Source: Nemertoderma westbladi (taxonomy: Eukaryota > Animalia > Xenacoelomorpha). Taken from it: a stretch of DNA of 64,000 nt. This document shows positions 18,127-51,991 of this stretch, in pieces (within the stretch, counting starts at the first letter, position 1; the number at the start of each line of letters is the position of its first letter). A program made the translations under genes and the position numbers. The DNA lies in the NCBI GenBank assembly GCA_032718475.1, contig JAUCBJ010005512.1, positions 90,270 through 154,269 on the forward strand. Reading direction: 5' to 3'. The notes beneath the pieces were generated by a model. It was given only the letters and a program-made list of their open reading frames with translations. It was not told the origin of the DNA and did no database searches.

Positions 18127-18137
18127 GTAATAGATTT
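18127..18137 (+). promoter_or_regulatory. BEL-A PBS position: non-tRNA, complementary to an 11-mer in its own LTR
   Basis: gtaatagattt is the reverse complement of aaatctattac (48949-48959, exact; the 5' LTR copy 17394-17404 has 1 mismatch). No TGG start. Confidence 0.7.
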
Positions 18138-20022: not shown

Positions 20023-23000
20023 ATGGCTAACACAAAACAAACACTGTCAGATAGTCTCCTAGAAAGAACAATCTGTGACTCAGATAAGAGTATAGAACAT
20101 CTGAGACCAAAGTCCAAGTCCCCTCCTACTGTAAGAAAGGTCATCCCTACAGTAGTAGTATCAGACCCTAGGCTAGTAAAGCACCATAGGTCTATTATAG
20201 GCACTAGGGCTCAAGTTAAGCGGGACCAAGAGGCAGCTGTTAAACAGCAGCAGCACCCGAGCCGAGAACTTATTTCTCAATGGCAGGATAACTCTAGTAG
20301 TTCAGACACTGAAGAGTTGACGCCCGAGATCGGAGCAAGGATGGCAGAAGCGGTTTATCCAGATCCACTTCTAATTCTTCCTGGGACACTAGAGATCCAG
20401 CTGTATGGAAGAGGTCGGCAGCAGGATATGTCCAGGGATTCTTCAGCTCTTTAGAGCGATTAGAAGAACACTTATTTGAACAACGCCAAGGACCTCAAGA
20501 GCAGGGAGAGCTGCTTTATCAAGTGCAAGAACGAATTTTATGGATCAGACTAATCCTTTCAGCCTTTGAGGAAGCCTCGAAGAGAAGCCAAGACACGTCG
20601 TTGCAAGTGGCCGTAAAGACTTGGTTCCAACGGGTGAGTCTTAAAGTCCAGGGAACGACACAATGGAAAGTTCAGCTAACGGAGCGCATGACCCACGGAG
20701 AATCAACAGACGCTACCTTTTCTCAGGTGGAAGGCGAAGCTACATCCGAAAAACCTCAGAAGAAGGATGCTACGGACATCTATCTGTCGGACTATCAACG
20801 ATTTATAGGTGACAAAGAGCTAAGGAGACGGCTAGCTGGACTTCACCCTAATAGTGAGGGAGCCAAACTCGTTAGATGCGGAAATATTAGCCGCGGAGCA
20901 GGCTAAATTTGATGAAAGCATCCTCATCGCTATGGAACAGGAAGAACAAATAAAGAAACGGCAAATAGAAGACCAAAAGTTGGCAGCAGCGGCAGAAGCT
21001 GAAAGAAAGGCGGCGGAAGCTGAAAGAAAAGCGGCAGTGGCAGAAGCAGAACGGAAGGCATCTGAAGCGACTACCCAACTAGAGCTGGAGAACCTTCAGG
21101 CGAAACAAGATTACTTGAATAAACAAAGGACAGCTACTCAGATGCAACTACCGAGTCGATCTACTCCCAGAAGACAGGGATTTACCTCCTCCGATGAGGG
21201 TGATACAACAGATCCCGAGGGGAAAGGTAATAAATCTCATTCAAGCGGACGTAGAAGAACGCCACGCCGTCAGAAGTTACCTAATTTACCTCCTGCGGTG
21301 AGAAGGCAACTAGCTAATCTAGACTTAAGTAATCAAGAACCTACAGACCAAATTATTAGAGTAGAAAGACTCCCTACTATAGTAGATGAGCCTGAAATAA
21401 TTAGGCCTGTCATTGAAGCCACTCCGGTGATAGAGACCCCTGTACTTCCAGAACCTAACTCTAAATTCCCTTTGCACAGTACTAAACTACATGTGCCCAG
21501 TAGACAAGCCCCAGAACCACATTCAGTCCTGGATGCCGAGCAAGACATAAATGACTCGTCTCCCGTCGCCCCTACGTGTCACCCCGCTACCATGTTGGCG
21601 GCTCCCGCTTCGGCGGTTGAGTGGGTGGACGAGGGACGGCGGGGGATGAATCAGTTGCTCGGGCAGCTGGAGGACCATAAGAACAGGTCTTTCCAGCAGG
21701 TCCGAGAATTGGAAGGGACTGTTCAGCAGTTAAAGGGAACAGTAAGAGAGAGTAGGTTAGAGTTGCAAGAAGTACAACAAAGTATCGCTTTAGAGCGAGA
21801 TAAATTAGTAAATATACAAATGGGTATACCACCACCCCCTGTAACAATGTGTCAGCCCGTTAGGTCTGAAGTATTTCATGGGCAAGGTGTGGAGCCTACA
21901 CGCATCTATACTGCTAGTGAAGTAGAAACTCCTATAGTAAACCCTATTAAGGGTAATTATAAACCCGTTGATAATGATATCCCATACAGATCTGATCATA
22001 ATCCGAGAAATTTATATACCGATAACTCGATATTAAATAATACGATGGCTCAAGAAAGTTTTATACATCAAATGGCTAGAACCGAAGCTTGTCAAGCGGT
22101 AAAGGTGGGAGAGGTCGTCAAGTTCAATGGAGATGAGATGAAATGGTTACCTTTTAATGAATATTATAAAGATAACATACAGAACTCTGTACTATCCAAT
22201 GGAGAGAAACTTAGATTCCTCATCGAGTGCCTGGAAGGACCTCCCAAATTAAAGGCGTTAAAGTTTATTGGACATCCAGATGGATTAAGACAAGTTTGGG
22301 ATACACTAAACATAAGGTATGGTAATAGGACTAACATAGCTAGGTATTTATATGCGAAATTATTAGCGCCCCGAAAGTTTCTTAGCAGTGGGATTATAGA
22401 GTTTTCCGATGAGATTCAGGAGATCTGTAGACAGCTAGATTGGTTAGGTAAGTCTCAAGAATACCAGAGTTCTATGGTTGTTGGAGCCGTAGCATCTACT
22501 TTACCAAAGGGTGGAGTAGGTACGCATTGGGACAAAAAGGTTCTCTATATGATGGACCAGCAACAAAGAGACCCTACCATGGCTGATCTCATGTCATTCT
22601 TAAATGGAGAGGTAAGATTACAGCTCCTAAAGCAGTCCAGAGAGAAGACACCGGAAAGTAAGGTGAGTGAAAAACCCGTTTCTAGAAGAAAGGTAACACC
22701 AGTGTGTTATACGGACGATGGCGAAAGCCAAACCTTATACGAGGAGAACAGCGGTAAGGACATCGAAAGATCGTATTATGTCAATAAAATAAGGAAAGAC
22801 GTAAGTAAATCTAAGTCTCGAACCAGTGACAGGAGAGAACAGGTAACAACTCCTCCTACGTCTCCTAAGAGAATTCATGGAAGAAAGCCCGAGGAAAGAA
22901 CCAGTGTGCACAACACAACACAGGTTAAAGTAAGTAACATCAAACCCAAGTGTGCATTGTGCGATGGGCCACATCGCTTGAGTGAGTGTGATGAATTCTT

Positions 23001-26000
23001 GAAGAAATCCCTGAAGGATAGACGTGATGTCATGTGGGATAAGCGGTTGTGTTATAATTGCCTCAGACGAGGACATCAACGACGGACCTGTTACTCAGAC
23101 GCAAGGTGTGCTAAGTGCGGTGCGAAACATCACATCTTGCTGCACGCAGAATTTGACAGAACCCGCACGAGTCAGGTAAGTGAGCCCGAACTACATGTCC
23201 AATTCAGTGATGTGAACGACGCTGACCACAGTTCTGAGATGGAAGGATTCTACACGGACGAATTCTCCGACGAAAATGAATCCTGTTATATGATAAACAC
23301 CGCTGTGTATCTAGCACTTACGTACGAGACTGAATCGGAAGCGGAAAATCCTTGACTGACTATTCCGGACCGACAACCATCTTGGAAAACAACCAACTTC
23401 CTCCGTCGGTATCCGAGAATTCCCTGTGGTGCAACTGAGAGTCCATGGGCTAGGTAAGAGCCTCATAGTAAACGCCCTCCTTGACTCCGGCAGCATAGGC
23501 ACCTTCATTGACAAAGAACTAGCTGAAGACATCTTTGCTGGACAACCCAAGTTCTGAACTCAGTTGAACCTTTCCGGAATTATGCAGGTTTGGAAATCCA
23601 CAGTAGCTACAGATTACTACGTGGGTGCGTTGTCCACTCCCCAGGATGAACTAGGAGAACATAGTGTAAGGTCGGTCAAAATGGTGGCTATAAAGAACTT
23701 TGCTACTAGCCAAGTGGAGCCTTACAACTGGGATGAAGACCATTTTACCCAGCAACATAATATTCCTAGATTCAACACTGATTACCCAGGGGTGCAGATC
23801 TTAATTGGCCAAAATGCGCACGAAGTGCTTGAGACATTAGAAAAACGGCCTGCTCGACCGCAACCATTGCAGACGTACGCGGGAAGAACGAGAGTAGGTT
23901 GATACTTCACTGGACCTTCCCGTAGAACCCTAATGGAAAGACTCCCTAAGGAAAGAATACATCAGGTGAGTGAATGGGAAGAAGAAATCAGTAAGGGAGA
24001 AACCACCACTGAGGGAACCCCATACTCCTCAGATAATGACGACATTAATCAACTGTATGATGAGGAAAATGTCCTAGACATCCTCACTTAGAACCAAACT
24101 TGGTTAAACCAAGCCAACCTATGCCATCTTATCAATCAACATGGCGGACAATACACATATAATGACGAATTAAACGAAGTGATAGATCGATACAATAACA
24201 AAATCCGTGATGAACACGCCGTACGATTCTTTACTCAAGAAGCCGTAGAGCCTAATTCCTACGACAAAGCCTTGTCTGTCGAGGAAGAGAGAGCCAAGCA
24301 GATTCAGGAAACGACTACACGTTATCTGAAGGACGAAGGTCGCTATGAGATTGGTCTTCCGTTCCGACGGCGAGAACCCAGCTTTATAAATAACCGACCT
24401 TTAGCGGAAAAGAGAATCGCACAACTACATCGGCATCTTACGGCCAATGTTCAAGCCAGGGAAATGTATAAAACCCAGCTGAAGAAATTCATTGATAAAG
24501 GATACGCAGAGCGAGTTCCGGAAGAAACACCCATAACGGAGAGAACATATTATCTAACACATCATTACGTTCCCAAGCCTGGTAAACCCAACAAAGTCCG
24601 GGTAGTGTTTGACGGCTCCGCCCTTTACATGGGTCAATCCCTGAACTCAGAACTGTTGCCGGGACCCAACTTACTCCAATCCTTGTTGGGAATATTATTA
24701 AGACTGCGGCAATATTCTATCGCATTCGCTTCGGACATAGAAGGCATGTTCTTACAAGTCAAGGTGCTGGATAGGGATTGAGACAGCCTACGATTTATGT
24801 GGTGGCCTGAAGGAGACCTCAACCGAAAACCGGTGGAGTACTGGATGACCATCCAGGCTTTCGGGATAATCTCGAGCCCCTCGAACGCTTGTTCAGTAGT
24901 GCGTACAACTGCCGATGACAACCGAGACGCCTTTTCTAAAGCGGTTATCGACAACATCAAACGGGATATATACATGGACGACAATTTAAAGTCCCTCCCA
25001 TCGGTGGAAGAGGCCATTGATGTTGCCAAGGGAACGGTAGAGTGCTTGCAACGTGGTGGATTTCGACTAACCAAATTCACTAGTAACTCCCGTGAGTTTC
25101 TGGAATTGATCCCGGTAGAAGACCGAGGACCGAGGTGTTAAAGATCTGGACCTCATCAAGGACGATCTTCTGGAAACCAAAACGCTTGGCTTAAAAAGGG
25201 ACACGGAGAGAGATATCTTGTTTTTCCAGTTAAAACAGCGAGATAATCCAGTTAGAACTAAACGGATTTGTCTAAGTATCCTGAGCACTTATTTCGATCC
25301 ATTGGGATTTATTAGCCCAGTTATATTAGTTGCTCGGAGCTTAGTGCAACAAATGTGGCTCGAAAACCACTCGTGGGATGATCCACTTAAGGGAGAACTA
25401 CTAAAGAAGTGGACGAAATGGGAAGATTCTCTACCATCCATCAAGAACTTTAAGATTTCCCGTTCATATTTTGGTCACGTTCTCCCCACGTATTCCTATC
25501 AACTCCATGTGTTTCGAGACGCCAGCGATATGGGAATAGGTATAGTAGCCTACCTGAGGGTTGAAACTCCGGATGGAATTAAAGTTGCCTTGGTTACCTC
25601 TAAGGCCTTGATAAACAACAAATTAGAAAAAAACAAAAAGTTCCTCGAGCGGAGTTAAAGGCGGCTCTATACGCTACAGCCATCGGCTGGAATGTAACAG
25701 AACAGATCGACTATCCACTGGAGAAACTGTCTATTGGACTGATGCTTTACTCGTTCTGGAGTATATAACCAATGAAGTCTGTCAGTTCAGCATCTTCGTT
25801 ACCAACAGAGTAGCCATTATACTCAGTCGCTCTAATGTAGATCAATGGAGACATTGCCCTGGGACGATCAATCCAGCCGACATCGCCTCCAGAGGAGCAA
25901 CTCCTCAAGAACTGATAGATACTCCAGACTGGTTAGGTGGACCCATCTTCCTAAGTAAAGAAGAGGATGAATGGCCTCCTCATCTCACCACGGCGGAGAT

Positions 26001-27834
26001 TAGACAAGCCAAGGGAGCGGAGAAAGTCAAACCTAAAACCCGGACGAGTAAATCAAAGTTATTTAAACCCGTGATAGATCTGTCTGTACTACACACCTCC
26101 GGGGACGACGCCGTAGATCTAAACTCCCCCACCACGAACAAATCTGTTATAGAAATCAGAGAAAGAGACTGGAAATCTGGAACACCAGATGTCTCGCAAG
26201 GACTCTCCCCTCTTCTGAGAGAGCAATAAATCATTATAGCTCCTGGAATCGGCTTTGTAAGGCCGTTGTGTATCTTAAAAGATGTTTCCATCATCACTAT
26301 TCCAGGACGAAGATCGCTAGTGATACCGCTCCAATAATATCCGAAAAGGTCCATGCTATTAAAGACCTTCCCGCTTATAAAGTGTCTGATAGGTTTCTGA
26401 ATGAGAAGATCAGTTACCAAGAGCATGAGGATACCAATAAGCAGATACTGAGACTCCTGCAATGCTACGAAGATTCCAATAAGTATTTCCTGTTGTTGAG
26501 AAATCCGCAGATGCGCTTAAGGGATCGTTTCTCTAGCACAATGATGGATGGGTTAATACGTGTCGGAGGGATAAAACTAAATTTCCCATACTCATTAGAA
26601 ATCTTGAAACACAAATCAAGATGATTGTAGATGTTCACAGTAGGCTTTACCATGCTGGTAGAGAACGAGTTCTTAGCGAAATTCGAACTCGCTATTATTT
26701 CCATGAGCCCCGTAGAGCTCTGAACCAAGTTCTTAGGAACTGTATACCCTGTAGGAAAGCATTCAGTAGGCCTTTAACACAGCGAGAGGCAGAATTACCT
26801 AGGGAACGAGTAAGCTTCTATGAACCACCCTTTACTAATACTGGTGTGGATTTATTTGGCCCTATTGAAGTATATCGTGCTAGGACTATAGTCAAGCGAT
26901 GGTGTGTAATCTTTGTCTGTATGACCCATCTAGATATGGTGAACGATCTATCTACCAACAGCTTCATACTGAGTTTACGCCGACAGATCGCTCGTTTTGG
27001 AACTAGCAACACTATGAGATCCGACAAAGGAACGAACTTCATTGGCGCCAATAATGAGATCAAAGCTTACATGAAAGGTTGGAACCAAAGACAGGTGGAC
27101 GATCAGCTAAGGATAACGGCATCTAGCTGGACCTTCACGCCGCCGATGCCCCTTGGTGGGGAGGAAGTTGGGAGAGATTAGTACGGAGCGTGAAGACCGC
27201 ATTTCACTTTATAGTGCCGTGCCGCGCGTATCTCACCGATGAACCTTTGCGGACGTTAATGGAAGAAATCGCCGCCTATCTTAATGAGAGACCGCTTATG
27301 CCAGTCTCATCGAGTCCCGACTCCCTAGAAGCGCTAACACCCGCGCATTTCCTACTGAAGAAACCTGTAGCCATGCTCCCTCAATCGGAAATCACGGACG
27401 GAGACGAATACTGCCGACAAACTTGGCAACTTATGCAGTTACTATCCCGTCGTTTTGCTGACCATTTCAAAAAACATTATCTTCCTACGCTACAACTTCG
27501 AACAAAGTGGTTTGCGCAGCAAGAAAACGTCAGCGCCGGAGACATGGTCCTTATTGTGGAATCAGATCTTCCATGTAAGAGGTGGCAGACAGGTCGTATC
27601 ATCGAGACTCATATATCCGATGATGGTTTAGTGCGATCGGTAGAACTCGTCGTCATGCGACATAACTTTAAGAAACCTGGAATTGTATTCGAAACACAAC
27701 AACTTAATCGCCCAGTTGGTCGTTTATGTTTACTGGAACGAGACCGAGAGTTATCCGGAAACTATGGAAGGCAAGATACTCTTCCCACGACCACCTCCCT
27801 AATCCAACAAACATCTAGGGACTCCCCAACGTAA
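20023..27834 (+). pseudogene. BEL-A gag-pol polyprotein, multiple stops and frameshifts
   Basis: Gag (VKFNGDEMKWLPF; knuckles CALC..H, CYNC...GH...C, CAKC..HH.LLH), protease LLDSGS, RT (KVRVVFDGS, SDIEGMFLQV, YMDD), Pao RNase H (FDPLG, DAS, NPADIASRG), integrase (GVDLFGP, SDKGTNF). Confidence 0.93.
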
Positions 27835-28731: not shown

Positions 28732-30655
28732 TATTCGAAGAGACGGTAACAATACCTGCAATATCTTACTGTAAAGTTTGTAAATCAAATCATAAATCCG
28801 ACCTTCTCACCAAAACAGTAAACTCTAAGTAAGCGAATATATTGCAGTATCGATCTCTTATAACCGGTGAGGCAGAAAACAGTCTACGAGCAGACAAACT
28901 TCGATAAAACAAAATCCCGCGCAGCGAATCCTAAAATCAGGCTGACTCACTGACGGACTAAGGGGCTCGTACACTTTGCCGCGGTGTGATTTATATGGTT
29001 TGGGCGAAGAGACGCTAGCTAGGTACACAGGCAGAGATTTGGAGATGTCTAACTAGCGGGCAAAGCACAGTACGGACAAAAGTTAAATTTTATATATTTT
29101 GAGGTGTAAATAATTCCTAACGCGCGTGTGTTAATTCTGAACGGTCAAAAACAGTTTTGCTCCTTCACATATATAATTACTGGGTACGGTGTGCATTTTA
29201 CGAATATTCTAATTTTGCAACTTGTAGGTCCAATACTCACGAATGATAAAGTTCCTTCCCCTCTTGCGTATTTCCAGGACTCAAATTCAGGCATAAAGTT
29301 AATGCTACGCCCAGAATTCGGCAATTTTAGGTACCAGGTCCCTGATACTAAGAAGAGATGTGTTAGTTTACTACTGTAGGCGTACAGTTACTAATAGCTA
29401 TCCTGGCTCCTATCTAGAATTTTAGTCACCCAGGTAGTCCGGGTAACTTCCTATTAGGGCGTTGGCGGGGACACGGTAGATGTTAGTATATCCCTAATAG
29501 CCTCAATTTATTTGCGCCTAGCTGTAAACTGCCCTACCGCCTGAACGGTACAATCCCAATTCAGGTGAAAACACAGCAACCCCCCTAGCCTACAAGTTCT
29601 AATGCAATGGACACTGTCGTACTACAAATAGTCGCACACACATCTGTACTTAGCAAGAGTTAGGCGTACAGTTTGCTGCACCCTACCAATTTGTATGCTT
29701 CGTACCGGTGTGCCTACGTCCTATCTGCGTACTAGTATCTGCCTGCTCTTTCCCTCTCCCCCGTAGGAATGTGAAGGTCTACTGTGGTTTTTCCTGAATC
29801 GAGACAGTACAGTCCCTAAGATGTAATTTTAGGCTCACAGCGTGTCACTACTTCTACCTTTTGATCTTTGGTCTTACGCTTAGGTAGCGAGGTGTCGAAC
29901 GCTGTCTAACCTTCAGGCGATGGGCGAATAACTCAAGATGGTATTGTGGGTTGTCCCTTGTCTACATTCCCGTGATGTTCCCGTTCATTGCTGCGGCCCG
30001 ATCTCTAGCCGGCCATCCTGTCCTTAACTTTGTTCACCGTAGTGAATCATGGTAAAACAGATAGAAAAGGCAGATTAGCAATAATTCTGACTTTATTACA
30101 GAAGATTATAATAATATGTACAATGTAATCTGAAATAAACTAAGCACGACAGAATTAAAGTGATGTGTGTGAGAGATTGAATGAGAAGTATAAGATAGAT
30201 TGAGAGATTGAATGATAACTAATGAACAAATCGCACCTTTTTATACTAAATTTGTGCCGCAATCAATCGAGAAAATTCTCGATTGTTCTATAGGTTCTAA
30301 CGGGGTTTTAAAGATAGCTATTGGTCCAGCTAATATATAACTTGCACGACATTGGTTACAATCAAATAACTACAGTCTCATTGGTACAGACAAATGCAAT
30401 TAATTTGTAGCGGTCAATTTAAATGAGTTGAAATTCTGCACAAAAAATAATTCGCACTTACTAGGATTCGAACTCAATACCTACTACACATATAATTTCC
30501 AACGCTCTACCGACTGAGCTACTGAACCACTTGACCAATAGGCGTACAATAGATATAACAAATACAAATGAGGATTCAAAGCAATCTTTTACAAAGTTAA
30601 TTCGAATAAAATAAAATTTTGAAAATCCACGGCATTTAGGGAATATAATTCTATA
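28732..30655 (-). repeat. BEL-B 3' LTR (TA..TA termini)
   Basis: Direct repeat of 43855-45777. Confidence 0.95.
30461..30528 (-). ncRNA. Degenerate tRNA-like/SINE-head Pol III cassette in the BEL-B 3' LTR
   Basis: ggttcagTAGCTCAGTCGGtagagc...GAGTTCGAATCC gives A and B boxes, with T6 shortly downstream. Acceptor and anticodon stems do not pair. Confidence 0.6.
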
Positions 30656-31214: not shown

Positions 31215-31312
31215 AAATTGCATAATATTCGGAACAATATAAATTGCATAAGTTCGGAATAATATAAATCGCATAAGTTCGGAATAATATAAATTGCATA
31301 AGTTCGGAATAA
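31215..31312. repeat. 25-bp tandem repeat in the BEL-B 3' non-coding region
   Basis: (aatataaattgcataagttcggaat) x ~4, with further degenerate copies nearby. Confidence 0.8.
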
Positions 31313-31595: not shown

Positions 31596-33540
31596 TTATC
31601 GCTTAGTTGATCGAGCCCTGCCGCGTCCTCGAAAACTGCGCACAGGTGACTTTGCTCGCGATATGGGACTCGTGGAGCGAGTCACTGGTTTACTTGGGAC
31701 GTTGAGAGACGGTGCGACTATTTCCTCGCAAATTCGTCTATTTGGCATCCCAAAACCCCGACCGATTCCTCGTGACCGATCAGTTGTCACTACAGTTGGT
31801 AGAACGTCTGGGAACGCGCGAAAAGCGGACGACGCAGACCCAAGAGTAGCTTGCGCCCCCTGTTGATCAGCTGGTGTATGTCCCGATCCTCCTACTGGTT
31901 CTCTTGGAAGCGATACCGTATCCCGAGTAACTCGAATGGTCGGCTCAACTCCCTTGCGTTCTTCTACATTAATAATTTTCTTTAATTGTTGGCCCACCTT
32001 TTGGACCCGTATGATCCTACCCTGCCCGTCCTCCCGAGGGTGACGTGCAGACGGCGCAACCGGAGTGGCTGGTATATTTGTCGCCTCTAGGACCTCTTCT
32101 TCCTCGAATACGCTCGCTCGTATACGTTTATGGTAAAACGCGGCTCGGTACGCCCATGCGACGGTTAACCAAGCTCCTTTATTCCGTTTTTCAGTTCGGA
32201 AACGATCGAATTCACCATATGTAATGCGGTTAACGACTTTCTGAAAATTCCACGTGTTTTTGTTATCCGGGTGAATCTGTAGTAGATACTCGCGCACTAC
32301 TCGGAATCCACTGTCGTGGGGCAAAATATCGACAACCTCGATAAGTTCGTCATATTGGGGCATAGCGGAGATGTATCCTTCCGACATCATCGTTTGAGGA
32401 TTTACCGCCCAAAATCCGAGATGCGCTCTCATCGGAAACCGTCTTCTTTGTGCCGATACATGTTCGTCGGCTAAATCTTCCCACTCATCAAATAATTTCC
32501 TCACGAGTTTTACAGATTCGTGTTCATAAGGTATGTCTCTTAGTTGGCATTCAGATGCTCGATGTCCTTTTATATTGCAATAAGTACATTGAGCCATAAA
32601 TCTCCAGCAAGTATAAAAGGTATGAGACCCTTGATCCCCACACCATCCACAGATTAGCTGAGTCGTAGTAATGTGCTTTCCACTGCACTTTGTCATATGA
32701 TGTCCAGCGACGCCACATTTACTACACATCGTATTGGCAGGGTACCACACTCGTTCGTATATAAGATCTCCAATCGGTCGAGCGCTTCCTCCCACACTAT
32801 AATCGTAATCATCTGGGTCTATGGGTTGGTAGGTTTCTGAAGGTTGTATACAAACTATAGCATCTGTTGCTTCAAGTTGTCGAATCTCCGTCTGAGATTT
32901 CTTCGGGAGGTTCCTTTCTATCTCAAGAAGTTCCTCTAAAGGATCGTCAGTGATCGTAGTAGTTACTTCGAAATCATCACCGAGGTGACCGATAGGCGCG
33001 CGCGTCTGCCGTGATTCTTCCGTAATCTCCACGATACGTTCTCCTTCATAGGGTAACAATGTAAACATAGATGGTCTTTCGATAAGAGATCCCGCATTGA
33101 TAATAAAGTTTATAAACTGAAAATGCTTCCTTGGTTTCTCTATCGTCCCCTCGAGTTCGTCTGTAAAGATGCATTCCATCAAATTCATCTCTTACCGCAG
33201 GCATAGGTTCGTGCGCCTTTAGGTATTGCATGGTATGATACAAACGACTAATTTCAGTATCGGGGTCCTCGCTAATATCTCCCGTATCACACAAGGCGTC
33301 GTACGGGTAAAGTTCGTTGAAGGTTTTGCGCAAACTTTCGATTCTTTCGTTTAATGCATTTTGTCTTCTCTTTAATACGTTCGAGTCATATTTAGTTCTC
33401 GCGAGTTTCGCTGTACTTTCCGATAATTCCTTTATACCGAATATAGTGTAGTCCTTGGCTCCAAATCTTTCGAATGGCGCTGCTGCCTCCTCTTGGATAT
33501 CATATCCCCATCTCGGCTCTCCTTGTATCCCTTTCTCCAT
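31596..33540 (-). CDS. BEL-B accessory ORF after pol (two overlapping frames 33046-33540 and 31596-33188; probably one frameshifted gene) with three CCHC zinc knuckles
   Basis: CSKCGVAGHHMTKC, CGWCGDQGSHTFYTC, CTYCNIKGHRASEC. The N-terminal part is homologous to the BEL-A accessory ORF. No signal peptide or TM segment evident. Confidence 0.75.
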
Positions 33541-34202: not shown

Positions 34203-34730
34203 TTATTTACTAGTATTAGGTGGAGATTTGTAGTCTCCAGACTCGTTACGAGTCTCTTCAAGAAGTACGAGACGTTGAGTCGGTCTGTTAACTGTACGAC
34301 CGTCAATTGTCCGTACCGTCACAGTTCTTGTCACTCCATCCATAGATGGATGTGTGGCTAAAATTACACCTGTTATCCAGAAGCGTCTTTTTAGATTCAC
34401 TTCCGCTAACAGCACGTGATCTCCCGGCTTTAATGCGTGGGTGTTATTGTACCAAGTTGTTCTGGCAGAAATAGAGGGCAAATAATGGTTTTGCCATATT
34501 TCCCAGAAATTGTTAGCCAGTAGTTGCGTGATTTTCCACGCCTTTCTACCGTAGCTGTCGCTTTCTATTGGAATAGAAATCGGCGTCAAAGTGGTCGGTG
34601 CCTGCATTAGCAGGTGTGCCGGTGTCAAAGCAAACTGAGATTGTTTGTCATCGGGTACTAATACTATTGGTCTAGTATTTAGTATTGCCTCGATTTCAAC
34701 AAACAATGTTGTCAGTTGGTCGTCTGTCAA
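34203..34730 (-). CDS. BEL-B integrase C-terminal part (frameshifted continuation of pol)
   Basis: LTTLFVEIEAILNTRP..LTPAHLL..FWEIWQNHYLP..GDHVL..DGVTRTV..RPTQRLVLLE, the Pao integrase C-terminus. Confidence 0.9.
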   Translation of the reverse strand: MTDDQLTTLFVEIEAILNTRPIVLVPDDKQSQFALTPAHLLMQAPTTLTPISIPIESDSYGRKAWKITQLLANNFWEIWQNHYLPSISARTTWYNNTHALKPGDHVLLAEVNLKRRFWITGVILATHPSMDGVTRTVTVRTIDGRTVNRPTQRLVLLEETRNESGDYKSPPNTSK

Positions 34731-34738
34731 TATGTGGT

Positions 34739-37700
34739 TTACTGGAATGACCTTTGCGCCATTGCCGTCTTTATAGATCTAATCAATCTCTCCCAGACTC
34801 CGCCTCTCCATGGACTATCTGGAGGATTAAACTTCCAAACAATCTTGTGAGGTTGTAGTTCGTTCGAGATTTGACCATGATCTAATTTCTTAAAGGCTCT
34901 AGCAATCTCATTCCGAGCACCAACAAAGTTTGTCCCTTGGTCTGAGTACAAGCATTTCACTAGTCCGCGTCTAGCGATAAATCGCCGCAGTGCTAGTATA
35001 AACGCGTTGGTGGAAAGATCCATCACACGTTCAATGTGAACTGCCCTACTGGACATACATGTGAAAATCAGTCCCCAGCGTTTTACTAGTATACGTCCAC
35101 GTTTCGTATGTATGGGACCAAAGCAATCAATTCCAGTCTCTGTAAAAGGTGGTCTGAATGCTTGAAGTCGTGCTTGTGGAAGTTCACTCATTTCCTGGGT
35201 ACCTATTCTAGAATGTACCTTTTTACAAATAATACACGTACGTGTCACTGAACTTAACGCTTTACTAGGTCTAATCAATACAAATCTTGTACGTAAGTAG
35301 GAAAGACAGTGGTGTCTTCCAGCGTGTTTCAGATGTAAATGTGCATCCAGTATCATTGCACGTTGTAGTTCGTGGTGTTGCGGTATTATTATTGGGTACC
35401 TAAAGTTTGTGTTAAAGTCAATGTTTTGAAGCCGAGATTTATGACAAAGTAAGCCATTATAAATTATCGGACTCCAACTCAGTATTGGTGACGACTTAAT
35501 AGGTTGACCTTGATTTATGGATGTGAATTCGCGCGCGAAATATCGCAGTTGGTAATGGCGAATTAATTTAATCTCACACCTTTCAATCTCAGCCAATGTA
35601 AGTCTACGTGTAAAGTCGCGTTTGCCTTTAACGTATTGTACAAAACGTACAATCCACGCTAATTTTCGGCAAGCGTTCGTCCAAGAATCTGTTAAGTTTA
35701 CAATACGGTCGACGTAAGTATTTGTGACGTCATCAGGTAAGTCAATGGAGAATTTGGAAGGTTTTGAATTACTAGAAGGGCCCACGGGTCCACCGGTAAG
35801 TATTCCCTTGTTGACTGTTGATCCGTCCGGGTCTACAAGTAATTTGTCCTTCTTCGTCTTCTTACTTTGATCGTCAGTACTTTGTAAGTCGATCGTTAAT
35901 GGTGGTTTGAACTCTATGGGGTCAGCAGGTTTCGGTAAACTTATTTTTCTGCCGACATTAATCCCAGGTCTCACCATAGGTTGCAAGTTCGGTATGTCTC
36001 TTGAGCGCAAAGTAACACCTGTATTTACATTAGCGTAGGTACTACCCACATCTGTAATACATGAGGTTTCACCATGCTTATGGTTGCTCAAGTGTGTCAA
36101 AATTGGTAGTTTGTAAATACAAGGCCGCTCCAATAGGGAAACTGCGGCTTTATGGTTTGTCAATATGTTACTAGTGTCTGGTAGAACATTTTGTGACATG
36201 TCTGGTAAAATGTTTCGCGGAACATCCGGCGAAATATCTAGTGACGTGTCTGGCAAAACGTCTGGTTGACCGTCTAGTAACGTGTCTGGCGATACGTCTG
36301 GTAACGTATCTAGTAACGTGTCAATAGAAGGCCGCTCCAATAGAGAAACTGCGGCTTTACTATTTGTCAATATGTCACTAGTGTCTGGTAGAACATTTTG
36401 TGACATGTCTGGCAAAACGTCTGGTTGACCGTCTAGTAACGTGTCTGGTTGACCGTCTGGCGATATGTCTGGTGTAGAAAGGCTCGCAAGTCTTCCTCTC
36501 TTGACCTTTGAAGTTATATCTTTCCATTTCGCCTTCGGTTTTTTCTTGAGTTTTGCCGCCGTCGTCTTTTTCTTTGCCTTCCCCTTTTTTGGTTTCTTGA
36601 TTTCGGCGTCCTTAGGGATGGTGTTAGACTTGTTGTCGTATAACGGTGGCCAATCTTGCGTCGATTTCTGCAAGAATTGGGGTCCGTGTTGCCAAAATTC
36701 TTTGTTCTCCGGTTTACAGAATTCCTCAGGCATCATTCCTCGCGACGCAATATCAGCTGGGTTTTGTGGTCCGGGACAATGTCGCCAATCCTCTTTTATT
36801 GAACGATCTAGAATTTCTGCGCGACGGTTAGCTACGAATGTCTTGAATTCAAGTGTGTCGTTGTTTATGTAAAATAAAACCAACGTCGCGTCAGTCCAAT
36901 AAAATATCTGTAAACTTGACTGTAATTCTGTCTGTATGAGGTTCACGATGGTGGTTGACAGGGTTGCGGCTTGTAGCTCAGCTCGTGGTGTCGTCATATA
37001 CTTAGTAGGCATTGTTTTTGCCTTAGAAGTAATGAGCGAAACATCGAATGCTTCTGAGTCTACTTGTCTGCGCAAGTACGCTGCCACACCAAAGCCGTTG
37101 TCACTGGCGTCAGAAAAACAGTGTAATTCCAAGTTGTCAGGGAATGTTGTTTGTAATGGAAAGTAGACTCTGGGTATGGAATAATTCTCTAGCGAAGATA
37201 ATTCCGCCTCCCAGGTCTTCCATAAGTCCACTTGGTCTGATGAGATCGGCTCGTCCCATGTCAGTCCATCCTTCCAAATACTGCGCATATAAATGCGGGC
37301 TTGCAGTATTACTGGACTGATGAATCCTAATGGATCGAACAATCGGCTCAATTTTGACAAGCATGATCTCTTTGTCAGTGTGTTTTCTTGACTGTCCAGT
37401 CTCACTTTCACTCGAAAGTTGTCTGTGTTTGGGTCCCAAAAGAGCCCCAACACCTTGGTCGTCGGTAGTGGTTCGAACTCTAGGTCTATGTCACCACCTC
37501 CACGCTCAGTCATTCCGAATGAGTCTACTAATTCGGCACTGTTTGAGGCGAATTTGGTGAGGTTAAAACCTCCGCCCGCTAAGCAGTCCCGTAATTGATG
37601 TGCTACTGTTGTAGCACGTTCTACTGTGTCGCAACTCTGTAAACCGTCATCGACGTAAAAGTCACGCTCCACAATCCTAATTATCTCTGGGTCATACAGG

Positions 37701-40700
37701 TGTTTCTGATCCCTAGCGGCTTGTTTTAGGGCGTACATCGTGCAGTTTGGGCTGTCCCTGGCACCGAAAACGCGAACTTGCATTTGGTAAGTCGCCGGTG
37801 GTAGACTTAAGTCTCCTTCCGGATACCAGAGGAACCTCAAACTGTCTCTGTCTCGCTCTAACGCTCTCACTTGGTGAAACATCGCTTCAACGTCGCAAGT
37901 AAAAGCTACTTGACGCTGACGGAAGCGCATAATCACCCCCATAAGATAATTATTCATGTTTGGTCCATCCATCAACTCGCTATTGAGGGACATTCCCTCA
38001 AACAGAGCCGCACAGTCATTGACTACACGTACTTTGTCTGGTTTGTCGGGGTGTCTTACGTAGTGATGTGGCAAGTAATACGTCTGGTCAGTCACTCGCT
38101 CCGGGTTAGTCATTCGGATAGCGTATCCCTTGGTCAAATACGTCTCCATCTGAGTGTTGTACTGCAGATGGGCTTTCTCGTCCTTTAATAGACGCTGTCG
38201 GATTGAGTGTAGACGTCTTAAAGCCATTGGGTAGTTATTTATGAGTTTAGGACTTTGGCTACGCCATAACATCCCTACCTCATAATGTCCGTCCTCCGTC
38301 TGGCAGATAGTATCTTCCATGATCTTCAGAGATTGTTTCTCCTGTTCCGACATACATGGTTCGTAGCTACCAGGTTCAGCTGTATCTTGTTCTAACCACC
38401 TGATAGTCTTCTCCGTTAATTCTTTGTCCAGTGCAGCTTGTTCCATTTGATGATTTCTCAACGCGTCATCATCGATATCGACGGGCATTGTTGAGGTTAT
38501 TGGGGTAGGTAGACTCGCAAGCCTTCCGGCGTTATCATCTGTCGTCGATGGAATCTCTAGCTGACTTGTCTTCTCCCCAAGTTCTAAACTCCGCTGGTGG
38601 ATTAGCTGCTCCTTGTGACTTATCATACTAGTCACACGTCTGTCACGTTTTGTCGACTGTAGTATAGTATGGTTCACGTCGTGTGAGAAAGAATGAATTG
38701 AATTTGTAGTTAATAAACTACATGTACTTTGTACATCGTCTTCCTCGTCACTTACGTCTAGTGTGCGCACAGGCGCTCGAGTATACCAGCCTATCGGCGT
38801 TCTGCAGGCGTATGCGTTTCCCGCTACGACTGCCGATGGTCTGGTTTCCCACACTTGGTGTAGGTTGAATTGGTCTGTCCCGATCAGCATGGCTACCGAT
38901 CTATAATTGACAGGACATTCGGTTACACCAAGGTGTCTGAAATACTTACGGTCCTCCAAGGATTGTTCTGGGACCGGACCTAGTAGGTTACTAAAGTCTT
39001 TTGTGGCCGCAAAGGTCAAATCCTTGAAGGGTAACAAAGACCTCTCCCTCTCGCTGTGTTGCGATTTCGGAAGAAGAGAGTCTAAGTTTAACTTGACTCG
39101 TGTCACTGGTATTGCACGCTGTCCGTGCATACTACTTACGGTATAACTGACGCGCTTACCTTGTCTGAGATCCGTTACGACGTCAGCTATCTTTTCATCC
39201 ACGTAACTGTGAGATGAGGCTGAATCTAGAATAGCGTAGATTCTCTTACTCCCCTTTGTGCCAGTAACCTTAATCGGAATTACACTGAATCCCTTCAGTT
39301 GGTCAGTAGTCAGAAGCGCGATCGATGGCTGTTCATCTCCATCCGAATATACGTCGTCGTCTTCTGACTCTTCGTCCGACGATCCGGATTGTTCTGAGAA
39401 GCAATCCTCAATATGGGTCACGAAGGTTGGAGTCGTTTTCGATTCTCGTTTTCTGTAGGCCGCATCACATCTCGCTGCTGCTTCCGGGTGTTCCCTGGCG
39501 AAGCGTTTTGTCGGCGTGTGGCTGTCTGTGTGGAGCAGACCGTCGTGGTTGTGTCCACAGGATGGACAAGTGTCGGTATTTGGGCAATCTTTACGGACGT
39601 GTCCGTGTCGCGTACACCGCCAACAAGAGTCCAATGGCCGTATCTGCAGCCGTCGTTCTTCCGAGTTTAACTCGCGAAACTGTCGACAACCTCGCAACTT
39701 GTGACCGATATACCGCTTGCCTAAATGCTCGCAGTATTGGCAGCCGCTGAAGTCGGTACTGAGTTGTTGTCTCGTCTGTTTTGTCCCAATGGGCGCAGAT
39801 ACCCTACTACCGTCCGAGAATTGCCGTGATTCCATCGGTGTGGCGTAAGTGGCCGTCTTAGTGGATGTTGTCTGGGGTTTTTGTCGGTTGGAGGATGGCA
39901 AGGTGATCCCTTCTGCTACGATGTGCTGGTCAGTGTAGTTGGATCGAGTCTCTACAACTGCTTCCCTGGATATCAAAAGGTACACATCCTCTAGTTTTAA
40001 GAATCCACCCCGCTCTTCTCGCTGGTATTCGATCTTTCTCCACTCCCGACGAAGCCGATGGTGGAGTCGTCCTATGATCTTTAATAGGACTGTAGGGGTA
40101 TTCCCGTAGTCAAGTTGTCCAATGGATCTTAAAGTAGTGATAGCGTTCTTTATCTCGTCGGCCAGTTTTAATAAGTCGACGGGTTTAGTGATAGCCCCTC
40201 CCTTACAGAGTTCCTCTATTACTGACCTGGCCATACTGACTTTACCTCCATATATCGAAGTTAAACGATCGTACGCTAGTTTGAAGGCGTCCGGTACACC
40301 GACGAAAGTCTCCGCCAAACGTTTAGGTTCTCCTGACAACGTTTGAAGCAGGTAATTAAACTTCTCCCGTGATGTAAAGGCGCACACGGCGATCTGGGAT
40401 TCGATATAGTCTACGAAAGTGTGCCAGTGTTTTGAGCTACCGGAAAACTTCGGTGGTTGTTGTACCGGCAATCCCTGTCTGGCTGCGAATTTCGCTATCT
40501 CCTCGGCAACGTTCAGAGTTTCGCGTCCTTGGTTGGTACACTGGTTGATATTCTCCCTTCTTGGCGCTTTCCCCTGATACGATGTGTTTTTTGAAGGTAC
40601 CGGTCTTTGTGGTTCCTTCGGGTGTCTATTGTGTTCGAACTCAGTGTTCCTCGAACTGTCGGTTTGAACTTCCTCCAGACGCTCCTCGATCTGAGCCAAC

Positions 40701-43042
40701 TTGTTAACAACTGGTCGCAGGATGTCGGCGAACTGTTGTGTACTGATTGCGTCCGTTGGTTGTAACGCCTTCTGTGTTGGTGTATTCTGTGGAGGATTGT
40801 CTACAAAGGAGTTGTCTGAACGCTCGCGTTTATATTCATCGGCCGCCCCTGTTCTAAATACCTCGCGTTTCGGGTAATCCGATTCGCTCGAAGTACTACT
40901 ATCATCTGGATATGGTGGTCGACGTGCTCGCGTCCGTTGCGTCGTACAAATTCTCACGTTTCGTTTCGGAACATCGTCCACTGATCTCCGTTGTTCGGTA
41001 GGCTCACAAGTCTTCCTCGAAGTCGTAGATTGCGATGTAAACTGATTTAACGGTTGCGTATCCACTGTTCTCCGTTGTTCGGTAGGCTCACAAGTCTTCC
41101 TCGAAGTCGTAGATTGCGATGTAAACTGATTGAACGGTCGCGTATCCACTGTTCTCCGTTGTTCGGTAGGCTCACAAGTCTTCCTCGAAGTCGTAGATTG
41201 CGATGTACACTGGTTGAACGGTCGCGTATCCACTGTTCTCCGTTGTTCGGTAGGCTCACAAGTCTTCCTCGAAGTCGTAGATTGCGATGTAAACTGAACC
41301 GGTGGTCGGACGACAGCGTTTGAATCCAAAGGCCTTGTTGGCCTAAACGTCATTGGGTAAGCGTAGTGTGTAACGGGTTTAGGTGTCGACGGTGGACTCA
41401 CCTGTTTAGTCGTCAGTAGTGCAGGTCCGACTAATAAACTACTACGATCTGTAATCGGTGGGTTACTTACCTTGACCCTCGGAATAGGCGATGACGTTGC
41501 TCTTGGCGGTGTAAACTTGTCCGGAATAACAAACCTGTGTTCCGTCGCACCATGGATAGGAGAAATATTACTACTACCAGCAATCGAAACAGGTTCCTTA
41601 GTCGTAACCGGTGCAAACATATGAGTTACCTGTGGGAATCGTTGACACAAGTCCTTTACTAATTGTCGTTCCCGTCCGGGTGCTCCTACGCTTCCTTCCT
41701 TCTTCCGTTCCTGAATTTGGCGATGTCTTACCTCTATCTGGTCCAAGTCATGTCCGTCTCGAGATCTCATCGATCGATCGCGGGCTTGTAGATCCAGATC
41801 TTCCTTCGCGTTGGCTAATTCTCTCGCCTTCTTCCCGAGTTCGAAATGAGGTTTAACTTCCTTCTCGCGTTGTTCCGTCTGTTGTTGTTGCGCCTCGAAC
41901 TCCGCTTGTCGTATAGCTGATTGAGCCTTTATTTGCCGTTTTTTCATCTCGGCTCTCGCTTCTGATACTAACCTCTGTCGCTCTAACTCAGCCGCTGCTG
42001 CTGCCGTTCGTTGCGCTAACTCGGCCGCTGCCGCTTGTTGGGCGATGTCCAACTCCAACCTTTCCATCTCGGCCGCTTCCAACTCGGCTTGTTCTTGCAG
42101 ATGAGAGATTCTTGCAACATTCGCAACACGTAGTTTTTCTTCTTCTACCGCCGCTTGTGCCGTCAACAGTTGAGCTTGTTCCTCATCTTCCCGTTGTTGT
42201 CTATCATGCTGTTGTTGCTGTCTGGAAATTTCTGACGTCACTATACTTATCTCGCCAATTTCGCTGCGAATACTCACTAACGATTGGTCCAGTATTCCCG
42301 GTGCCGATTCGATTCGTACGGGTGAAGTTTCCCTCGTATATTCCGGCACGGTTTCCAAATCGCCGATGTCTTCGCCGCACATACGTAAGTGGTCCGTCAG
42401 ATGTTTCAATTGTCCATCCAGTCGGTACAGTTCCTGTTCTTCCTCGGGCTGCAATAATTCGTCCGAAACTGACTCACCTAACAACTGGTCTGCTTGTTCC
42501 TGTTGTGTCTGCCTAATCGTCGACTTAAACTGAATCAGTTTCTCTCTAGCGATCATTAGTTTCTCGAGGATTCTAAGTTGATTATCCATGTCCTGTCTCT
42601 GTCTAGCTAGATCTTGTAGACCGATTAGGTTATCTACGGACTTGTGTACTCTAGTTTGCACTCTAACCTGGAGGGTGTAGAACTCGAATCGAGACATCGG
42701 AGCGGTCAACTCGTCTAATATGCGTTGGCCTTCTCCAATACTCCTGGTTATATGCGCCATGTATCCACCGACGCTCCTAACAACGCTTTCCTGACTTCCT
42801 GCTGAACTTACCATGTCCGATTCCCTATATCTAGGTTGCGGAACAGTTAGAAAGTCCTCGGTCCTGCCGTTGCCTCGTACTACGGCATCCGGTACTCCCG
42901 TTGGATGTACTGGTGACGCACACGGTGTAGGTTCGGTAGGCTCGCGAGTCTTCCCCTGTTGTTCTTCCGCTGCTGACTTATCTCCATCACATGAGTCATA
43001 GTCGGTAGGTGTATTTTTCGTATAGTCTGGTTTGTCACTCAT
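34739..43042 (-). CDS. BEL-B gag-pol polyprotein, 2767 aa
   Basis: Gag PPKFSGSSKHW with 3 Cys/His knuckles; protease AILDSAS; RT KVRVVNDC, DVEAMFHQV, YVDD; RNase H FSDAS/YWTDA/NPADIASRG; integrase HHCC, GIDCFGP, SDQGTNF, GGVWERL. Confidence 0.97.
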   Translation of the reverse strand: MSDKPDYTKNTPTDYDSCDGDKSAAEEQQGKTREPTEPTPCASPVHPTGVPDAVVRGNGRTEDFLTVPQPRYRESDMVSSAGSQESVVRSVGGYMAHITRSIGEGQRILDELTAPMSRFEFYTLQVRVQTRVHKSVDNLIGLQDLARQRQDMDNQLRILEKLMIAREKLIQFKSTIRQTQQEQADQLLGESVSDELLQPEEEQELYRLDGQLKHLTDHLRMCGEDIGDLETVPEYTRETSPVRIESAPGILDQSLVSIRSEIGEISIVTSEISRQQQQHDRQQREDEEQAQLLTAQAAVEEEKLRVANVARISHLQEQAELEAAEMERLELDIAQQAAAAELAQRTAAAAAELERQRLVSEARAEMKKRQIKAQSAIRQAEFEAQQQQTEQREKEVKPHFELGKKARELANAKEDLDLQARDRSMRSRDGHDLDQIEVRHRQIQERKKEGSVGAPGRERQLVKDLCQRFPQVTHMFAPVTTKEPVSIAGSSNISPIHGATEHRFVIPDKFTPPRATSSPIPRVKVSNPPITDRSSLLVGPALLTTKQVSPPSTPKPVTHYAYPMTFRPTRPLDSNAVVRPPVQFTSQSTTSRKTCEPTEQRRTVDTRPFNQCTSQSTTSRKTCEPTEQRRTVDTRPFNQFTSQSTTSRKTCEPTEQRRTVDTQPLNQFTSQSTTSRKTCEPTEQRRSVDDVPKRNVRICTTQRTRARRPPYPDDSSTSSESDYPKREVFRTGAADEYKRERSDNSFVDNPPQNTPTQKALQPTDAISTQQFADILRPVVNKLAQIEERLEEVQTDSSRNTEFEHNRHPKEPQRPVPSKNTSYQGKAPRRENINQCTNQGRETLNVAEEIAKFAARQGLPVQQPPKFSGSSKHWHTFVDYIESQIAVCAFTSREKFNYLLQTLSGEPKRLAETFVGVPDAFKLAYDRLTSIYGGKVSMARSVIEELCKGGAITKPVDLLKLADEIKNAITTLRSIGQLDYGNTPTVLLKIIGRLHHRLRREWRKIEYQREERGGFLKLEDVYLLISREAVVETRSNYTDQHIVAEGITLPSSNRQKPQTTSTKTATYATPMESRQFSDGSRVSAPIGTKQTRQQLSTDFSGCQYCEHLGKRYIGHKLRGCRQFRELNSEERRLQIRPLDSCWRCTRHGHVRKDCPNTDTCPSCGHNHDGLLHTDSHTPTKRFAREHPEAAARCDAAYRKRESKTTPTFVTHIEDCFSEQSGSSDEESEDDDVYSDGDEQPSIALLTTDQLKGFSVIPIKVTGTKGSKRIYAILDSASSHSYVDEKIADVVTDLRQGKRVSYTVSSMHGQRAIPVTRVKLNLDSLLPKSQHSERERSLLPFKDLTFAATKDFSNLLGPVPEQSLEDRKYFRHLGVTECPVNYRSVAMLIGTDQFNLHQVWETRPSAVVAGNAYACRTPIGWYTRAPVRTLDVSDEEDDVQSTCSLLTTNSIHSFSHDVNHTILQSTKRDRRVTSMISHKEQLIHQRSLELGEKTSQLEIPSTTDDNAGRLASLPTPITSTMPVDIDDDALRNHQMEQAALDKELTEKTIRWLEQDTAEPGSYEPCMSEQEKQSLKIMEDTICQTEDGHYEVGMLWRSQSPKLINNYPMALRRLHSIRQRLLKDEKAHLQYNTQMETYLTKGYAIRMTNPERVTDQTYYLPHHYVRHPDKPDKVRVVNDCAALFEGMSLNSELMDGPNMNNYLMGVIMRFRQRQVAFTCDVEAMFHQVRALERDRDSLRFLWYPEGDLSLPPATYQMQVRVFGARDSPNCTMYALKQAARDQKHLYDPEIIRIVERDFYVDDGLQSCDTVERATTVAHQLRDCLAGGGFNLTKFASNSAELVDSFGMTERGGGDIDLEFEPLPTTKVLGLFWDPNTDNFRVKVRLDSQENTLTKRSCLSKLSRLFDPLGFISPVILQARIYMRSIWKDGLTWDEPISSDQVDLWKTWEAELSSLENYSIPRVYFPLQTTFPDNLELHCFSDASDNGFGVAAYLRRQVDSEAFDVSLITSKAKTMPTKYMTTPRAELQAATLSTTIVNLIQTELQSSLQIFYWTDATLVLFYINNDTLEFKTFVANRRAEILDRSIKEDWRHCPGPQNPADIASRGMMPEEFCKPENKEFWQHGPQFLQKSTQDWPPLYDNKSNTIPKDAEIKKPKKGKAKKKTTAAKLKKKPKAKWKDITSKVKRGRLASLSTPDISPDGQPDTLLDGQPDVLPDMSQNVLPDTSDILTNSKAAVSLLERPSIDTLLDTLPDVSPDTLLDGQPDVLPDTSLDISPDVPRNILPDMSQNVLPDTSNILTNHKAAVSLLERPCIYKLPILTHLSNHKHGETSCITDVGSTYANVNTGVTLRSRDIPNLQPMVRPGINVGRKISLPKPADPIEFKPPLTIDLQSTDDQSKKTKKDKLLVDPDGSTVNKGILTGGPVGPSSNSKPSKFSIDLPDDVTNTYVDRIVNLTDSWTNACRKLAWIVRFVQYVKGKRDFTRRLTLAEIERCEIKLIRHYQLRYFAREFTSINQGQPIKSSPILSWSPIIYNGLLCHKSRLQNIDFNTNFRYPIIIPQHHELQRAMILDAHLHLKHAGRHHCLSYLRTRFVLIRPSKALSSVTRTCIICKKVHSRIGTQEMSELPQARLQAFRPPFTETGIDCFGPIHTKRGRILVKRWGLIFTCMSSRAVHIERVMDLSTNAFILALRRFIARRGLVKCLYSDQGTNFVGARNEIARAFKKLDHGQISNELQPHKIVWKFNPPDSPWRGGVWERLIRSIKTAMAQRSFQ
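40975..41297 (-). repeat. 84-bp in-frame tandem repeat (~4 copies) in BEL-B gag
   Basis: Encodes FTSQSTTSRKTCEPTEQRRTVDTRPFNQ repeats. Confidence 0.95.
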
Positions 43043-43127
43043 TTCGGTAGTTGTAAGTCAAGTAAAGTGAGTGTCAAAGTATCGAGTTTACCGTATTTAT
43101 ATCTAAACGGTACTAATTACAGTCATA

Positions 43128-43843: not shown

Positions 43844-43854
43844 CACATTCCTAC
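43844..43854 (-). promoter_or_regulatory. BEL-B PBS position: non-tRNA, complementary to an 11-mer in its own LTR
   Basis: Element-sense gtaggaatgtg is exactly complementary to element-sense cacattcctac at 44885-44895 (and 29763-29773). Confidence 0.75.
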
Positions 43855-45359: not shown

Positions 45360-45506
45360 TTTTTATACTAAATTTGTGCCGCAATCAATCGAGAAAATTC
45401 TCGATTGTTCTATAGGTTCTAACGGGGTTTTAAAGATAGCTATTGGTCCAGCTAATATATAACTTGCACGACATTGGTTACAATCAAATAACTACAGTCT
45501 CATTGG
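45360..45506 (-). promoter_or_regulatory. Candidate Pol II promoter in BEL-B U3
   Basis: Three CCAAT boxes (45442-6, 45473-7, 45502-6) upstream of TATAAAAA (45360-7); AATAAA at 45214-9. Confidence 0.5.
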
Positions 45507-45582
45507 TACAGACAAATGCAATTAATTTGTAGCGGTCAATTTAAATGAGTTGAAATTCTGCACAAAAAATAATTCGCACTTA

Positions 45583-45650
45583 CTAGGATTCGAACTCAAT
45601 ACCTACTACACATATAATTTCCAACGCTCTACCGACTGAGCTACTGAACC
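45583..45650 (-). ncRNA. Degenerate tRNA-like/SINE-head Pol III cassette in the BEL-B 5' LTR
   Basis: Same sequence as 30461-30528. Confidence 0.6.
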
Positions 45651-51980: not shown

Positions 51981-51991
51981 ATAACAGTTAT
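51981..51991 (+). promoter_or_regulatory. BEL-C PBS position: non-tRNA, complementary to an 11-mer in its own LTR
   Basis: ataacagttat is the exact reverse complement of ataactgttat at 51245-51255 (and 62702-62712). Confidence 0.7.

Follow-up and report, generated by a model that had tools for sequence, protein, structure and literature searches.

Retrotransposons of the BEL/Pao group are described in their ICTV profile as encoding gag, pol and an optional env-like gene, typically within a genome of 4.2-10 kb bounded by LTRs of 0.2-1.2 kb, and as possessing, again as a typical trait rather than a phylogenetic criterion, an 18-nt primer site complementary to tRNA-Arg or tRNA-Gly. The env-like genes of the group have several known origins, as set out in the available portion of PMC13524379. 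Accessory genes are named for Retroviridae, Caulimoviridae, Tat and fungal chromoviruses in the accessible text of PMC2774666, and self-priming is described for Tf1/Sushi, Tcn1 and TAR in the available sections of PMC6317226; for Tf1, the accessible part of PMC7175516 gives the transcript's initial 11 bases as pairing with the PBS. Neither a non-env third ORF nor self-priming surfaced for BEL/Pao in the parts of the open literature available to us (PMC3118150, PMC6238403, PMC8220671, PMC4600332, PMC3601003, PMC12451622 and bioRxiv 2025.03.14.642691), a scope that for both leaves aside subscription papers, Repbase, GyDB and supplements. The supplement of PMC3118150, which holds element sequences, could bear on whether such an ORF is already on record.

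The locus described here is a 64-kb window of animal DNA, the window being the whole stretch that was analysed, and contains three BEL/Pao LTR retrotransposons belonging to two families, A and B. Between pol and the 3' LTR, both families carry an additional reading frame, ORF3, that appears from its sequence to be a real and old accessory gene, orphan and non-env, belonging to a BEL/Pao sub-lineage that is represented by two families in one genome.

Two related BEL/Pao families

The elements and their main parts are as follows.

28732-45777, minus strand: B element, BEL/Pao, 17.0 kb
28732..30655, minus strand: B 3' LTR, with TA...TA ends
43855..45777, minus strand: B 5' LTR
34203..43057, minus strand: B gag-pol, a 2772 aa frame plus the integrase C-terminus in a second frame, with the break near 34740-34780
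17043-49548, plus strand: A1 element, BEL/Pao family A, 15.5 kb without B
17043..18126, plus strand: A1 5' LTR
48599..49548, plus strand: A1 3' LTR
20020..27834, plus strand: A1 gag-pol, split into many frames
50828-63435, plus strand: A2 element, second family A copy with internal deletions, 12.6 kb

B is nested in A1, between the pol and the ORF3 of the latter. The paired LTRs differ at 5 of 1922 aligned bases in B, 16 of 945 in A1 and 5 of 1151 in A2, and the 5-base target duplication is exact for B and A2 and agrees at 4 of 5 bases for A1. The polypurine tract before the 3' LTR is near-identical in A and B and ends in GGAGCGG, so that LTRs, a short target duplication and a polypurine tract are all present, as in BEL/Pao elements generally. 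The gag and pol regions of B contain DUF1759, ILDSAS, YVDD, Peptidase_A17 (2e-42), Integrase_H2C2 and DUF5641; they follow the Pao-type order gag-PR-RT-RH-IN, with which the pieces of A are collinear. PF05380 is found in all of the best 120 among 1307 pol relatives. The triple Cys-His box pattern of BEL Gag, including a C-x2-C-x3-H-x4-H box, is given in the available text of PMC554778; the three boxes are present here, the last as C-x2-4-C-x3-H-x4-H, with A1 fitting all three and the first box of B having a longer spacer. All three elements exceed the typical BEL/Pao size range, B at 17.0 kb with LTRs of 1.9 kb, A1 at 15.5 kb and A2 at 12.6 kb.

A search with the RT-RNase H region of B returned these 1307 relatives, the best 120 of which share 36-44% identity with it and, where named, come from cnidarians, molluscs, echinoderms, a brachiopod, a barnacle, a hemichordate and fish. 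Because the best listed pol relatives are as distant from B as A is, the lineage appears not to be sampled in the libraries. In a comparison set made up of pol relatives chosen by similarity to B, without an outgroup or named clades, A1 and B were sisters in five of five trees. The FastTree analyses, which drew on 96, 120 and 115 of those 120 relatives, supported the A1-B pair at 98, 29 and 99; IQ-TREE, confined to the closest 33 and 31, gave 98/97 (RNase H) and 92/98 (RT). The end branches of A and B measure 0.6-0.9, as compared to medians of 0.3-0.4, and long-branch attraction could contribute to the grouping; when the neighbours of A are ordered by raw BLAST score, B comes 1, 65, 4 and 77 in four pieces. 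The evidence for a sister relationship is good but not beyond doubt.

Several other properties of the window were recorded. The LTRs of family B start with TAT and finish with ATA and not TGT...ACA; this holds at both LTRs, and the 5-base duplication is exact. Family A has kept TG...CA. The B pol frame breaks within integrase at 34739-34778, a place where other copies have a small indel, and the break looks like a property of some copies. Long repeat-rich inserts occur in B gag-pol at about 36250-36750 and 40893-41381, these being a gag repeat of 84 bases and, separating RNase H from integrase, a Pro/Asp-rich repeat. Tandem arrays of 48-base and 32-base units flank A1 and A2 (49407-50960, 16884-17090 and 63370-63928), and family A may have an insertion preference for these satellites. 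Outside the retrotransposons, a 455-codon plus-strand frame at 5406-6773 contains a BCL9 domain (E 8e-9) with no sign of an intron, and is a host gene exon or a retrocopy. At about 10329-14106, convergent ORFs (11045-12064, plus; 12705-13688, minus, the latter with rva_4 and HTH_21 domains) lie between inverted arrays of a 21-base repeat, a unit that we take by its look to be an IS3EU-type DNA transposon. A simple repeat of ~2.7 kb at 14051-16790 has a GC skew of 0.96 and leaves all three minus-strand frames open. The 64-kb window yielded no tRNA genes and no Rfam families.

A third gene with a shared block

An initial annotation, made by eye, had reported a conserved domain in accessory ORFs of two divergent BEL families and had taken it to mark a lineage-wide third gene. 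Both families do possess such a gene between pol and the 3' LTR, the block being the N-terminal part of ORF3, and the two peptides that had been compared are encoded where they had been placed (B, minus strand, 33267-33094; A, plus strand, 46861-47031). A lineage-wide distribution would be an extrapolation from these two families of a single genome.

33046..33540, minus strand: 5' piece of B ORF3, beginning at the first in-frame ATG of a 201-codon frame
31596..33095, minus strand: B ORF3 3' piece, in another frame of 531 codons
33094..33366, minus strand: shared block in family B (initially marked core, 33094-33267)
32547..32726, minus strand: three CCHC zinc knuckles of B ORF3
33092..33096, minus strand: point at which this B copy and other copies part, seen from both sides
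46375-47175, 46904-48028 and 48029-48520, plus strand: A1 ORF3 in three pieces, with a Ser/Pro-rich basic tail
46759..47031, plus strand: shared block in family A, copy A1 (initially marked core, 46861-47031)
47029..47091, plus strand: A1 C-x2-C...H...C cluster directly 3' of the block, also in A2
60622..62188, plus strand: remains of A2 ORF3, with the shared block mostly deleted

Within the block, 22 of 56 aligned residues are identical between A and B, and the alignment withstands shuffling: its Smith-Waterman score of 97 was not reached in 5000 shuffles (mean 21.9, maximum 47). The similarity begins ~35 residues before the position first marked, at 33366 in B and 46759 in A, and over the full ORF pieces 30 of 93 residues are identical, with a pairwise E of 2e-9 and a score of 108, the best of 5000 shuffles scoring 67. 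By tblastn and tblastx against the window, the block (E 5e-7) is the sole significant match between the B 3' region and the rest of the window; at the DNA level, blastn with word 7 matched nothing of A to the B 3' region. Outside the block, nothing detectable links the ORF3s of A and B, with 35, 127 and 148 of 300 shuffles scoring as high. Chance resemblance between two unrelated ORFs is a concern where a block is short and the pair was chosen by eye; with no shuffle of 5000 as high in either of two tests, the window-wide E-value, and sister elements holding the block at the same position and in the same orientation, its probability is practically negligible.

The contrast that had been drawn with the rest of these elements was correct in the main. 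That the LTRs are not alignable stands, since LTRs, spacers and 3' UTRs score no higher than shuffled sequence (for the 5' UTRs the score is 31, the best of 60 shuffles reaching 30). The same claim for the gag N-termini stands for two of three pieces, in which 49 and 8 of 200 shuffles score as high, and fails for the third (0 of 200), a result put down to Ala/Glu-rich coiled-coil composition.

The present form of ORF3 in B appears to be a damaged one. Contigs of three public runs match B up to 33096 and then continue with different letters, and a 1887-base contig, the sole contig of a fourth run over 33110-33385, matches 33092-33481, its other 1497 bases being found nowhere in 31300-35000. Most likely this B copy lacks a stretch of at least 1.5 kb at 33092-33096, with a 5-base overlap at the joint; alternatively, the other B copies may have gained an insertion that brought a 5-base duplication. 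If a stretch is missing, the simplest reading is that the 201-codon and 531-codon frames are flanks of one longer ORF. On both readings the right edge of the block at 33094 does not mark the end of a domain; most likely it was set by the damage. A programmed frameshift or a small indel joining the two B pieces was also considered and rejected, as no indel is listed between 33046 and 33540 in the copies compared and the copies part at 33092-33096. The probable loss of at least 1.5 kb has occurred in a copy of B although its LTRs are near-identical. In A1, ORF3 has a frame break after the Cys/His cluster and an internal stop. The spacer between pol and ORF3 (~0.66 kb in B, 1.7 kb in A2) contains stops in all frames, which rules out simple read-through from pol and points to a separate transcript.

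The block had been supposed to be under selection, and comparison of family B copies supports this. The B ORF3 region is present in five public runs from four studies; four of these runs supplied variants, the variants being the best-supported differences among related copies and not independent events. Between 33097 and 33540, 24 of the 28 variants found among the best 40 of 44 rows are silent, against 20% expected, and 23 of the 28 are at third positions, so that the coding frame of the 5' piece is kept by selection to about 33097. In the 3' piece, 12 of 23 listed variants are silent and 15 are at third positions, these 23 being 12 and 11 from two tables, the second of which has 122 further rows beyond those listed. 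When A1 is compared with A2, all five ORF3 pieces show their lowest conservation at third positions.

Between families, amino-acid identity in the block is 37% across 71 codons, with nucleotide identities of 0.49/0.59/0.32 at the three codon positions; the corresponding values for six RT, RNase H and integrase pieces are 40-49% and 0.45-0.58/0.59-0.69/0.26-0.36, and amino-acid identity in the capsid region is 27%. Conservation of the block is therefore not unusual, being slightly below that of RT, RNase H and integrase and above that of the capsid region. The likeness of the codon-position pattern in block and pol argues against a recent swap and suggests that the block dates back to the split of the pol genes, so far as saturated silent sites allow; an ancient exchange of ORF3 may also be compatible with saturated third positions. 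Because A and B are sisters on both RT and RNase H, ORF3, known here from these two families of a single genome, most likely passed down together with pol. We consider it very probable that ORF3 is a real, co-inherited, non-env gene.

Primer-binding positions complementary to the LTR

A further peculiarity lies immediately inside the 5' LTR of each element.

43844..43854, minus strand: primer-binding position of B, complementary without mismatch to LTR 44885-44895 (and 29763-29773)
18127..18137, plus strand: A1 primer-binding position, exact complement of 48949-48959 (3' LTR)
51981..51991, plus strand: primer-binding position of A2, complementary without mismatch to LTR 51245-51255 and 62702-62712

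In all three elements, the 11 bases that directly follow the LTR form the exact reverse complement of a site in the LTR, at position 883 of 1923 in B, 418 of 1153 in A2 and 351 of the 3' LTR in A1 (one mismatch to 17394-17404 in the A1 5' LTR), and pairing ends at exactly 11 bases on both sides. A1 and A2 share the position of the LTR site, and their 11-mers differ at 4 places, each matched by a change in the primer site. Random LTRs of like composition contained the word in 3 of 5000 and 2 of 5000 cases, and among 120 downstream control windows a complement was present for 2 (B) and 0 (A2). No TGG occurs in the 80 bases that follow the 5' LTR of B and A2 or in the first 30 of A1, and the primer site typical of BEL/Pao accordingly appears to be lacking from B, A1 and A2. 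Thus, at the level of sequence, all three carry a Tf1-type self-priming signature. Tf1 and Tj1 likewise have 11 LTR bases complementary to the 11 bases after the 5' LTR, but self-priming is on record for Ty3/gypsy chromoviruses and, as a proposal, for some copia elements of plants, where no third gene is involved. A clean self-priming signature with compensated changes contradicts the tRNA priming of the ICTV profile.

Possible functions of ORF3 and comparison with known third genes

ORF3 occupies the slot in which other BEL/Pao elements hold env, and a degenerate env gene is for that reason an obvious candidate, the env-like genes of the group having arisen more than once. Across the eight ORF3 pieces of the window, the maximum 19-residue hydropathy by a simple window method is 0.07-1.24, the peak of 1.24 lying in A1 from 46375, before any ATG and directly behind a stop; no transmembrane stretch and no signal peptide after the first ATG were found in these pieces, although a stretch of B is probably missing from the window and may hold a membrane segment. 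N-glycosylation sequons number 0-1 per piece, A has few Cys (7 over three pieces), no glycoprotein family of Pfam matches, and the knuckles of B are of a cytosolic type. A degenerate env is thus highly improbable.

Other features point to nucleic acid. The 3' piece of B ORF3 comprises an acidic stretch, the zinc knuckles and a Pro/Ser-rich basic tail; two of the three knuckles fit C-x2-C-x4-H-x4-C exactly and one has x5 spacing, the zf-CCHC family of Pfam is reached at E 0.0046, below the cut-off, and the Atlas neighbours of the piece are knuckle proteins at 0.78-0.88, a lead only, with none at 0.9. CCHC knuckles are not present in A ORF3. In both families the tail is Ser/Pro-rich and basic, Lys and Arg making up 28% (B) and 38% (A) of the last 40 residues. 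The structural model of the block is of low confidence (pLDDT 42.5; a second AlphaFold model, 37.8), with helices over the shared part, and Foldseek returned no match for the former at E 0.001.

The combination of predicted helices followed by zinc-binding motifs, and the presence of three knuckles as in BEL Gag, might suggest a second, Gag-like structural protein derived from a duplicated or captured capsid-nucleocapsid gene. No ORF3 piece finds the gag of either family by tblastn at E 0.01, however, neither DUF1759 nor a capsid family of Pfam matches, and the third knuckle is CCHC rather than the C-x2-C-x3-H-x4-H of BEL Gag given in the available text of PMC554778; this origin is very unlikely.

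The third gene had at first been assigned to no named family, and none was found in Pfam, PHROGs, NCBIfam, PDB, Atlas or HMMER. HMMER over 1.84 billion representatives gave 0 matches at E 0.001; Pfam gave just the sub-cut-off zf-CCHC and weak noise, with no glycoprotein, DUF1759, capsid or DNA-binding family; PHROGs gave three weak matches (E 0.016-0.08); and NCBIfam and the PDB sequences gave no relative. A word-index search with the alignment of the two sequences as query found no relative among proteins of 371-2000 aa, nor did one with the B 3' piece among proteins of 292-930 aa, and 0 of 37 candidates from viral contigs were confirmed. Two of 406 metagenome candidates (L001 and L002, 10001-10072), 23-residue matches in bacterial DNA outside the listed ORFs, were rejected as chance because they had been selected by the search pattern itself. 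Since the libraries lack close relatives even of pol (best 36-44%), these blanks say little.

They nonetheless bear on the possibility that ORF3 is a host or other mobile-element gene, captured once by the ancestor and serving an enzymatic or other role than RNA handling. Such capture is documented for the ORF3s of rotifer LTR elements in the available part of PMC5408684, and the part missing from this B copy leaves room for a catalytic domain. Against this, no donor emerges from the 1.84 billion representatives or from Pfam, PHROGs, NCBIfam and PDB, and A ORF3, nearly complete by its look, is without a known domain. We regard such a captured gene as decidedly unlikely.

A role in counter-defence or transcriptional control, in which the ORF3 protein, by binding either LTR DNA or a silencing factor of the host, would keep the element expressed, is also unlikely. 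It would fit the Ser/Pro-rich basic tails with their possible nuclear signals, the small conserved core in a protein that otherwise diverges fast, and the youth and high copy number of B in contigs of four studies. CCHC knuckles, however, typically bind single-strand nucleic acid, no DNA-binding family matches, and changes within the family are mostly silent with no sign of positive selection.

It is this property of CCHC knuckles that favours an RNA-handling helper. ORF3 would have been acquired once, before A and B split, and then inherited with pol, and would be expressed from an RNA of its own, spliced or internally started. Its product would be an intracellular zinc- and RNA-binding protein acting on the transcript of the element, the helical block serving as an oligomerisation or partner-binding module, and the knuckles and basic tail binding RNA as a chaperone or an export or packaging factor. 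Because the two ORF3s are alike only in the block and the knuckles occur only in B, a common RNA-binding role rests on general features. That ORF3 is a non-env, likely RNA-binding accessory protein gene co-inherited with pol stands at about an even chance, and that its job is the handling of the element's own RNA, by chaperoning, export or packaging, at even or a shade below. A still bolder proposal, that A and B belong to a deep, unsampled branch of giant BEL/Pao elements combining own-RNA priming with a zinc- and RNA-binding helper in the env slot that folds or processes that RNA, is a long shot; if true, such elements would be 'complex' retrotransposons with a dedicated replication helper.

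Regardless of its function, a third gene that is not env and has been retained since A and B diverged, a split at which silent sites are saturated, would mean that BEL/Pao, too, has long-lived accessory genes, with parallels in complex retroviruses and in some plant and rotifer elements, and the block could serve as the seed for a new protein family missed by current libraries. Closest in overall design are the Belpaoviridae with an env-like third gene, namely Tas, Cer7, Roo and the mosquito elements with a Chuviridae-like glycoprotein, which share with A and B a gag-pol containing Peptidase_A17, DUF1759 and DUF5641, the triple Cys-His box, a 5-base target duplication and a third gene between pol and the 3' LTR. 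Unlike these, A and B have a third gene without membrane features and with zinc-binding motifs, are 15-17 kb long with a 1.9-kb LTR in B, and have no tRNA-type primer site.

The ORF3s of the bdelloid rotifer elements Vesta, Juno, TelKA and Mag, so far as the available part of PMC5408684 describes them, are also in sense orientation, after pol, non-envelope and kept within a branch of the pol tree, but they encode a GDSL esterase, a DEDDy exonuclease or membrane and coiled-coil proteins in other lineages, whereas the ORF3 of A and B has no known relative. The additional ORFs of plant Ty3/gypsy and Ty1/copia elements, as presented in the accessible text of PMC7264820, are likewise conserved across copies and related families, placed between pol and the 3' LTR and of unexplained origin and function; they belong to other superfamilies and another kingdom, however, and there the sense ORFs are mostly env-like and the orphan ones often antisense.
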